Shown: positions 1,024 to 2,124 of the stretch, piece by piece
Position numbering within the stretch: the stretch's first letter is position 1
Layout of the letters: the number at the start of each line of letters is the position of its first letter
Assembly: GCF_053078305.1 (NCBI RefSeq)
Contig: NZ_CP166879.1
Reading direction: 5' to 3' (one strand)
Length of the DNA stretch: 64,000 nucleotides
Made by a program: the position numbers and the translations under genes
The notes under the pieces: generated by a model
Databases searched by the model: none
Told to the model about the DNA's origin: nothing
The model's input: the letters and a program-made list of their open reading frames with translations, nothing else

Positions 1024-2124
1024 ATGAAATTAAAAATAGTTGCGGTGGTTGTAACTGGTTTGTTAGCTGCGAACGTAGCACACGCTGCCGAAGTCTATAA
1101 CAAGGATGGTAATAAACTCGACCTTTATGGCAAGGTTACCGCTCTACGTTATTTTACTGATGATAAGCGTGACGATGGTGATAAAACTTATGCCCGTCTC
1201 GGCTTTAAAGGAGAAACGCAAATCAATGATCAAATGATTGGTTTTGGTCACTGGGAATATGATTTTAAAGGCTATAACGATGAAGCCAACGGCTCGCGCG
1301 GCAACAAGACCCGTCTGGCCTATGCTGGTTTAAAAATTAGTGAATTTGGCTCTCTGGACTATGGCCGTAACTACGGTGTCGGCTATGACATTGGTTCATG
1401 GACTGATATGTTGCCAGAATTTGGTGGCGATACCTGGAGTCAGAAAGATGTCTTCATGACATACCGTACCACCGGTGTAGCAACCTATCGCAACTACGAT
1501 TTCTTTGGCTTAATTGAAGGGCTGAACTTTGCCGCGCAATATCAAGGCAAAAATGAACGTACTGACAACAGTCATCTTTATGGTGCTGACTACACGCGTG
1601 CCAACGGTGACGGTTTCGGTATCTCCTCAACTTATGTTTATGATGGCTTTGGTATCGGAGCAGTGTATACCAAATCCGATCGGACAAATGCGCAGGAAAG
1701 AGCCGCTGCTAATCCTCTCAATGCCTCCGGTAAGAATGCAGAACTGTGGGCTACAGGTATAAAATATGATGCCAACAACATCTACTTTGCAGCTAATTAC
1801 GCTGAAACATTAAACATGACCACCTATGGCGATGGTTATATTTCTAACAAAGCACAAAGTTTTGAAGTGGTGGCGCAATATCAATTCGACTTCGGCTTGC
1901 GCCCCTCACTCGCTTACCTGAAATCGAAAGGCAGAGATCTGGGCCGCTACGGCGACCAGGACATGATTGAGTATATCGACGTTGGTGCGACGTATTTTTT
2001 CAACAAAAATATGTCGACCTATGTTGATTATAAAATCAACCTGATTGATGAAAGCGACTTTACCCGTGCCGTAGATATTCGCACCGATAACATCGTCGCT
2101 ACGGGCATTACCTATCAGTTCTAA
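1024..2124 (+). CDS. General outer-membrane porin, OmpC/OmpF/OmpN family, full length (366 aa) with signal peptide
   Basis: N-terminal signal peptide ending [19 protein letters not shown] and C-terminal ...GITYQF, both typical of enterobacterial general porins; locus corresponds to the yddL position of K-12. Confidence 0.85.

Follow-up and report, generated by a model that had tools for sequence, protein, structure and literature searches.

Counterparts of the porin gene analysed here have been described in other Escherichia coli strains and in Enterobacter. In E. coli EDL933, O-island 62 is a region of 1,548 bp that comprises z2239-z2242 and lies between yddG and narU; yddL of K-12 matches the 5' end of z2239, yddJ matches the 3' end of z2242, and the state of K-12 was concluded to be derived from the EHEC/EAEC form and was attributed to ‘insertion of yddK’ (PMC3079680). 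In EAEC 042, Ec042-1601 has been described as ‘an apparently functional ompD’ and was paired with the nmpC pseudogene of K-12, not with yddL (PMC2808357). Clinical isolates of Enterobacter hormaechei lose ompD by deletions across yddG-ompD (PMC11874173), and yddL of K-12 was assigned a role in osmotic stress in 2023 (PMC9976479). Our literature search for Z2239/ECs2076 identified PMC3079680 as the sole relevant paper, and most of the papers identified on ompD, phylogroup and porin used ompD as a synonym of nmpC. The difference between an intact porin and yddL of K-12 is already published.

Here we analysed a stretch of E. coli DNA of 64,000 nucleotides (hereafter called the window). An open reading frame at positions 1024..2124 on the plus strand starts with ATG and encodes 366 amino acids. 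We propose, with high confidence, that it encodes an intact general-diffusion porin and represents the positional ortholog of Salmonella ompD in E. coli, that this gene is ancestral, and that it has repeatedly been lost within E. coli. The first 21 residues (1024..1086, plus strand) form a signal peptide that ends in AHA, as determined by alignment with the cleavage sites of OmpC, OmpF, PhoE and OmpN, with which the AHA site lines up and leaves a mature N-terminus of the type AE(V/I)YNKDGNK. The mature protein of 345 amino acids (approximately 38.9 kDa, pI 4.8) and the stop codon occupy 1087..2124 (plus strand). Residues 27-366 cover the Pfam Porin_1 profile (PF00267) fully (1-337 of 337, E=1.9e-134), and the solved structures of OmpK36, OmpC, OmpF and PhoE match the mature porin in sequence from end to end (E-values of 1e-112 to 1e-127). 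The alignment also showed that the eyelet residues K16, R42, R82, R132, D113 and E117 (OmpF numbering) are all kept and that the L3 motif PEFGGD is present. The C-terminus reads ...GITYQF, of which the aromatic terminal F is the beta-signal for BAM. Judged by these sequence features, the product is an ordinary, intact general porin of the Porin_1 family.

On this basis, the protein would be exported by Sec and cleaved after AHA, and the mature protein of 345 residues would then be inserted by BAM via the C-terminal Phe signal. From homology to the solved trimers, it is predicted to form a 16-stranded trimeric beta-barrel of the OmpC/OmpF/PhoE family, that is, a water-filled channel of the general-diffusion type. 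The L3 loop, with the D and E of PEFGGD, would lie opposite the basic cluster of K, R, R and R and narrow the channel, which would then permit the passive diffusion of small hydrophilic solutes. Expression, channel activity and regulation of the porin are likewise predicted.

The RefSeq annotation names this gene ‘ompC: porin OmpC’, a name that is used for strain D8, O157:H7 and others, so that it might be regarded as a second copy or an allele of OmpC. The porin scores 496 bits against the NCBIfam ‘porin OmpC’ model NF007841, just over the cutoff of 484, its scores against the NCBIfam OmpF and PhoE equivalog models are far under their cutoffs, and its top matches among the solved structures are OmpK36/OmpC. 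However, NF007841 is a ‘subfamily’ and not an equivalog model, the identity to OmpC of K-12 is only 61.8%, the genuine ompC lies at another locus that adjoins micF/rcsD, and OmpC of K-12 groups with the Klebsiella OmpC-type porins in a separate clade with 99% bootstrap support. We therefore consider a second copy of OmpC to be extremely unlikely. The initial annotation had assigned the protein to the OmpC/OmpN family; the family stood, and orthology to OmpC or OmpN gave way to that of a positional ortholog of ompD, as indicated by the tree and the locus described below.

The gene lies directly downstream of yddG, which encodes an aromatic amino acid exporter of the DMT family and whose 3' part (1..765, plus strand; cut by the window edge) is 98-99% identical to yddG of K-12 and D8. 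Further downstream are a frameshifted gene for a leucine-rich repeat (LRR) protein of the EHEC z2240/z2241 type (2288..3552, plus strand, as ORFs 2288..2797 and 2884..3552), an intact espR1 for a T3SS effector-type LRR protein (3615..4871, plus strand; as annotated by RefSeq in strain D8, which is near-identical), and narU for a nitrate/nitrite transporter (5191..6579, plus strand), which serves as the downstream syntenic anchor. We surveyed porins in one genome per species and mapped YddG, FdnG and NarU around each match by tblastn. The order fdnG (reverse), yddG (forward), porin (forward) was found in at least 30 loci from E. albertii, Salmonella, Citrobacter, Enterobacter, Lelliottia and Intestinirhabdus, where Salmonella was represented by Salmonella enterica subsp. 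arizonae and, among the matches listed, Citrobacter and Enterobacter each by many species. The gene narU was located further downstream of the yddG-linked porin wherever the contig extends that far. The yddG-linked porin of E. albertii has 92% amino acid identity to that of the window, and nothing lies between it and narU. In Salmonella and Enterobacter, the porin is separated from narU by genes for an exporter of the MFS type and a regulator of the TetR type (smvA and smvR), which is the published neighbourhood of Salmonella ompD.

Next, we constructed a neighbor-joining tree of the porins (Kimura distances, 200 bootstrap replicates). The porin of the window fell into a clade with 96% bootstrap support together with Salmonella OmpD, the yddG-linked porins that are at least 68% identical to it, and the NmpC/LC group. 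OmpC (99% clade), OmpF/PhoE (87%) and OmpN (100%) of K-12 all fell outside this clade. The identity of the porin was 71-74% to Salmonella OmpD versus 59-62% to OmpC, OmpN, OmpF and PhoE of K-12. Branching within the OmpD/NmpC clade was poorly supported (10-44% bootstrap), and the phage-borne NmpC/LC porins nest there. Since these share the 96% clade and 68% identity with the porin of the window, and since ompD has been equated with nmpC (PMC2808357 and PMC10321414), it could be supposed that the gene is a phage-borne porin of the NmpC/Lc type. However, these porins form their own subclade with 100% bootstrap support apart from the protein of the window, the flanks hold yddG upstream and the LRR genes, espR1 and narU downstream without phage genes, and the K-12 remnant of the gene is yddL (b1472), not the nmpC pseudogene of DLP12. 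Thus, a phage-borne origin has virtually no probability.

Comparison with E. albertii gave a dN/dS of 0.03 for the porin, which indicates strong purifying selection. The dS of the porin in this comparison (1.36) was above those of the flanking yddG (0.70) and narU (0.85), and this raised dS leaves room for recombination at the porin. Because the porin is yddG-linked in other genera, clusters with Salmonella OmpD and is under purifying selection, these comparisons argue that it is a vertically inherited positional ortholog of ompD, and that the intact form was already present in the ancestor of the Escherichia-Salmonella-Citrobacter-Enterobacter group. The proposal in the initial annotation that this strain keeps an ancestral intact gene was thus borne out by the synteny across genera, the OmpD clade and the dN/dS value.

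The survey also yielded two kinds of exceptional porins. In Enterobacter vonholyi and E. chuandaensis (loci L049 and L050, 6001..7107), the yddG-adjacent porin is only 62% identical to that of the window and clusters with OmpC of K-12 in the 99% clade, apparently as a result of a replacement of the porin next to yddG. In the contig JAIJJM010000616.1 (locus L006, 31..1125, protein P0001), the N-terminal residues, approximately 125 in number, are diverged up to the PEFGGD loop and the rest is nearly identical to the porin of the window. The signal peptide of P0001 is of the OmpC type (MKRKVLAMLVPALLVAGAANA), and the LRR gene 3' of the porin is 95% identical to that of the window. P0001 looks like a mosaic formed by recombination between porin paralogs, and the contig, which was binned into a ‘Collinsella sp.’ MAG, almost certainly comes from Escherichia and was assigned to the wrong bin.

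We also examined the DNA upstream of the gene, and found that the 260 nt upstream of the porin hold blocks that are conserved in alignment across seven genera. A Shine-Dalgarno sequence, AGGA (1011..1014, plus strand), is located 9 nt 5' of the ATG, and the AAGGAT block around it is kept in all aligned orthologs. A MAFFT alignment of the -260..+30 regions showed a conserved block, TTCGACTTCGATCACA, at 863..878 (plus strand), in which GATCACA (872..878) does not vary among the 12 yddG-linked porin loci aligned, which represent 7 genera. Salmonella ompD is dependent on cAMP-CRP. Because of this dependence, we regard the block, a CRP-like 16-mer, as a candidate CRP-type half-site. A candidate sigma-70 promoter, which consists of TTGTTT, a spacer of 17-18 nt and TTAAAA/TAAAAA, was read from the alignment at 915..944 (plus strand), where its position matches that of a conserved TTGAAC...TAAAAT in other genera; a consensus promoter scan gave other sites (864..892 and 949..978) and not this one. 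Downstream, a hairpin and T-run resembling an intrinsic terminator (2136..2165, plus strand; 9 pairs, 6 of them G-C) lies 12 nt past the porin stop, with its stem at 2136..2159 followed by TTTTTG. Located between yddG and narU, the porin gene would thus have a promoter region and a terminator of its own. A full-length porin of 366 amino acids with a signal peptide and a terminator, adjoining yddG, had been noted initially, and the ORF, the Pfam match, the cleavage-site alignment, the hairpin and the end of yddG at 765 all agree with that description.

The pairing of small RNAs with the porin transcript was also analysed. The MicC pairing site of Salmonella ompD (+67..+78, codons 23-26) was not conserved in the E. 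coli and E. albertii alleles as judged by duplex energies: the MicC duplex had an energy of -20.8 kcal/mol (z=-3.2) in Salmonella (S. arizonae) versus -11.9 kcal/mol (z=+0.25) in the window. The match to the RybB seed was weakened, with -13.7 kcal/mol (z=-1.5) in the window versus -18.3 kcal/mol (z=-2.9) in Salmonella, and the energies of the full-length SdsR duplex with the E. coli allele were no better than those of shuffled sequences. A search with Rfam at the gathering threshold gave no match in positions 1..8000 of the window. Given that the MicC site is not kept and the RybB seed is weak, Salmonella-type regulation is not simply transferable to E. coli; control by MicC and RybB of the Salmonella type is a regulatory trait and is not defining for the OmpD group.

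According to the initial annotation, K-12 keeps only a short porin fragment, yddL, at this position. The annotated gene order of MG1655 is yddG, yddL (b1472, 96 amino acids), yddK, yddJ (a pseudogene) and narU, which agrees with this statement; we examined K-12 for a full-length gene at the site and found only yddL. BLASTN analysis showed that positions 1..1307, 2845..3170 and 3812..8000 of the window align collinearly with K-12 and are 97-98% identical to it. The first interruption corresponds to a loss of 1,546 bp in K-12 (1305..2850), for which the junction alignment showed microhomology of CGGCAA at both endpoints, with the left copy at 1299..1304 (around porin codon 93) and the right copy at 2845..2850, and a single CGGCAA hexamer left in K-12. 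This deletion, which corresponds to ‘O-island 62’, removes porin codons 94-366 and leaves yddL. Alignment of the porin with YddL showed that YddL residues 1-93 are exactly those of the porin, with 0 differences in the first 281 nt, and are followed by three foreign codons and a stop. Thus, yddL has the same upstream region and the same residues 1-93 as the porin of the window, but ends after 96 amino acids where the latter is full-length, and because a fragment of 96 amino acids cannot form a 16-strand barrel, we regard yddL as a gene remnant. The second interruption is a deletion of 653 bp between two copies of a 12-mer, CATTGATTTATC, at 3159..3170 and 3812..3823, which gives rise to the chimeric yddK: this gene starts at the ATG at 2884 of the LRR ORF and runs on into the central part of espR1. 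The pseudogene yddJ of K-12 corresponds to the 3' end of espR1. These junctions show that the K-12 arrangement is derived from one like that of the window via two deletions between short repeats.

Recent acquisition of the region has been argued from its GC content of 33-36% (PMC3079680), which raises the question of whether the porin is an accessory gene on a recently acquired island (O-island 62) that was gained by lineages of the EHEC/EAEC type and not lost by K-12. In favor of a gain, the region has been catalogued among the O-islands, both the LRR block and the intergenic DNA are rich in AT, and genomes of the CFT073 type lack the whole block. The GC content is 34% in the LRR block and approximately 49-50% in the flanking genes, but that of the porin itself is 44%. 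Moreover, yddG and the porin are neighbours in seven genera or more, in E. albertii without any LRR genes, the regulatory blocks 5' of the porin are shared between genera, and the 5' region of the porin is still found, unchanged, in K-12. Acquisition of the porin with the island is already largely refuted and, in our view, very unlikely. A later insertion is suggested for the LRR block (about 2160..5005) alone.

The AT-rich LRR genes (2288..4871) are missing in E. albertii and in the other genera, in which smvA-smvR or nothing is found at the site. In addition, a palindrome, GTTACATTTAGTAAC / TTAGTTACATTTAGTAACAC (GTTAC-N5-GTAAC), was observed at 5006..5025, at the start of the conserved region upstream of narU; it is kept in CFT073, is found in a diverged form in E. 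albertii and may be a binding site for a regulator. The alignments of the CFT073-type deletion and of the E. albertii gap both resume at 5006, and we considered this shared point as the right boundary of the island. We rejected it because the conserved region upstream of narU starts there, so that alignments resume at 5006 whatever the history.

To describe the distribution of the locus, we counted its states in 5,426 complete E. coli genomes. A full-length locus, counted from DNA coverage (at least 80% of positions 700..2400 of the window present) and not from each reading frame, was found in 1,106 genomes (about 20%). The K-12 deletion junction was found in 3,138 genomes (about 58%), and a CFT073-type junction in 1,119 (about 21%); in the latter (B2) genomes, the block corresponding to 846..5005 is absent and yddG is joined to the region upstream of narU. 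Another deletion, of the THO-008 type (1956..3071), was found in 10 genomes. The K-12 and THO-008 junctions have different endpoints, which demonstrates that deletions occurred independently at least twice, in addition to the complete deletion of the CFT073 type. These counts argue that the porin gene has been inactivated several times within E. coli. The porin is kept by the strain of the window, O157:H7 and EAEC 042.

The protein databases held an in-frame fusion product of the porin and the LRR protein (P0005). We also observed an N-terminally truncated product of E. coli, which begins only at residue 98 (P0017, on 168 contigs), and a protein of E. albertii whose N-terminus is aberrant (P0013, at locus L013), both of which point to extra frameshifts or 5' disruptions beyond the characterised deletions. 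A protein identical to that of the window occurs on at least 1,000 contigs of the public collection, where it is named ‘porin OmpC’, and the closest complete genome for the porin region, that of strain D8, has 3 nucleotide differences in the porin and an identical protein. In the protein collection clustered at 90% identity, the porin belongs to a cluster of 9,017 members whose representative, like many of its members, is a LepA protein (elongation factor 4) from Roseburia. This shared cluster is a clustering artefact, and it is the reason why the exact protein of the window is absent from the protein-search matches.

Considering that approximately 80% of the complete E. coli genomes have lost the porin via several different deletions, and that the adjoining LRR gene is already frameshifted, the ORF of the window could be intact and yet silent or decaying, as a functional pseudogene on its way to a loss like that in K-12. 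Such decay would not be expected to leave a dN/dS of 0.03 across the divergence from E. albertii, all of the functionally critical residues, an intact set of promoter-region blocks, Shine-Dalgarno sequence and terminator, and the exact protein on so many contigs. We therefore give this reading little probability. As for why the gene has been lost so often, it is conceivable, albeit doubtful, that the recurrent loss reflects positive selection against a surface-exposed porin (a phage or colicin receptor, a target of antibodies or a route of antibiotic entry) rather than neutral decay. If this speculation is true, then retention in the D/E/F-type lineages and in Shigella would represent a different ecological trade-off, as has been reported for OmpD of Enterobacter hormaechei.

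The porin and a vgrG gene had together been taken initially as showing that the window is not from K-12. In the window, vgrG is located at 28013..29977 and a second vgrG at 22040..23737, together with a DUF2169 gene (27056..27997), a PAAR-like toxin gene (25930..27063), an ORF with Gp5_C repeats after the second vgrG (21591..22085), an ORF of 692 amino acids without a Pfam match (19371..21449) and fragments of an H-repeat/DDE transposase (17625..18449 and 24406..24951), all on the minus strand. This region is an orphan T6SS island (17625..29977, minus strand). The corresponding site of K-12 is occupied by the rhsE pseudogene, ydcD, yncI and ydcC and has no vgrG, whereas the window has two vgrG genes there. 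The window is clearly not from K-12, as had been stated. At least 80% of positions 14000..34000 was covered in only 10 complete genomes, among which PS10-3 was the closest for the vgrG region. The best-matching complete genomes align to this interval only from its position 683 onward, and approximately 680 bp (14000..14682) are not collinear with them.

Although none of the porin findings would surprise a specialist, they bear on how this locus is named and interpreted. As shown by the junctions described above, the K-12 state arose via two deletions and not via the ‘insertion of yddK’, and recent acquisition would apply to the LRR block only and not to the porin, both of which correct the earlier account (PMC3079680). 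Similarly, the K-12 counterpart of ompD is yddL and not the DLP12 nmpC pseudogene with which it has been paired (PMC2808357). It follows that yddL should be annotated as the leftover of an ompD ortholog and not, as has been proposed (PMC9976479), as a small protein with its own function. Both the RefSeq label ‘porin OmpC’ and the equating of ompD with nmpC in the literature obscure the true orthology. Furthermore, about one-fifth of the complete E. coli genomes, including those of O157:H7 and EAEC 042, carry an extra general porin, which is relevant when results on permeability, phage receptors or vaccine antigens are carried over from K-12.

Among the known systems, z2239 of EDL933 (O-island 62) and Ec042-1601 of EAEC 042 (‘ompD’) are the same gene at the same locus, with no biological difference from the porin of the window; the O157:H7 genomes are 99.4% identical to the window over 700-2400. 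The general porins OmpC, OmpF, PhoE and OmpN have the Pfam family, the fold, the L3 motif, the cleavage site and the C-terminal signal in common with the porin of the window, but they are only 59-62% identical to it, belong to separate, well-supported clades and are encoded at other loci. OmpD of Enterobacter hormaechei is yddG-adjacent and 72-74% identical to the porin of the window, although it occurs in a different genus and in an smvAR neighbourhood. The loss of yddG-ompD in that species parallels the recurrent loss of the porin in E. coli, and the contributions of OmpD to virulence and to the entry of carbapenems were tested in E. hormaechei rather than in E. coli. Finally, OmpD of Salmonella enterica (STM1572; nmpC in the LT2 annotation) has the same position directly 3' of yddG, the same eyelet residues and the same GATCACA block. 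It differs from the porin of the window in its surface loops, for example in the loop around residues 170-185, and in the MicC target in its coding sequence, which the gene of the window does not carry. The DNA that follows also differs, with smvA-smvR between ompD and narU in Salmonella and Enterobacter and the LRR genes and espR1 there in E. coli.
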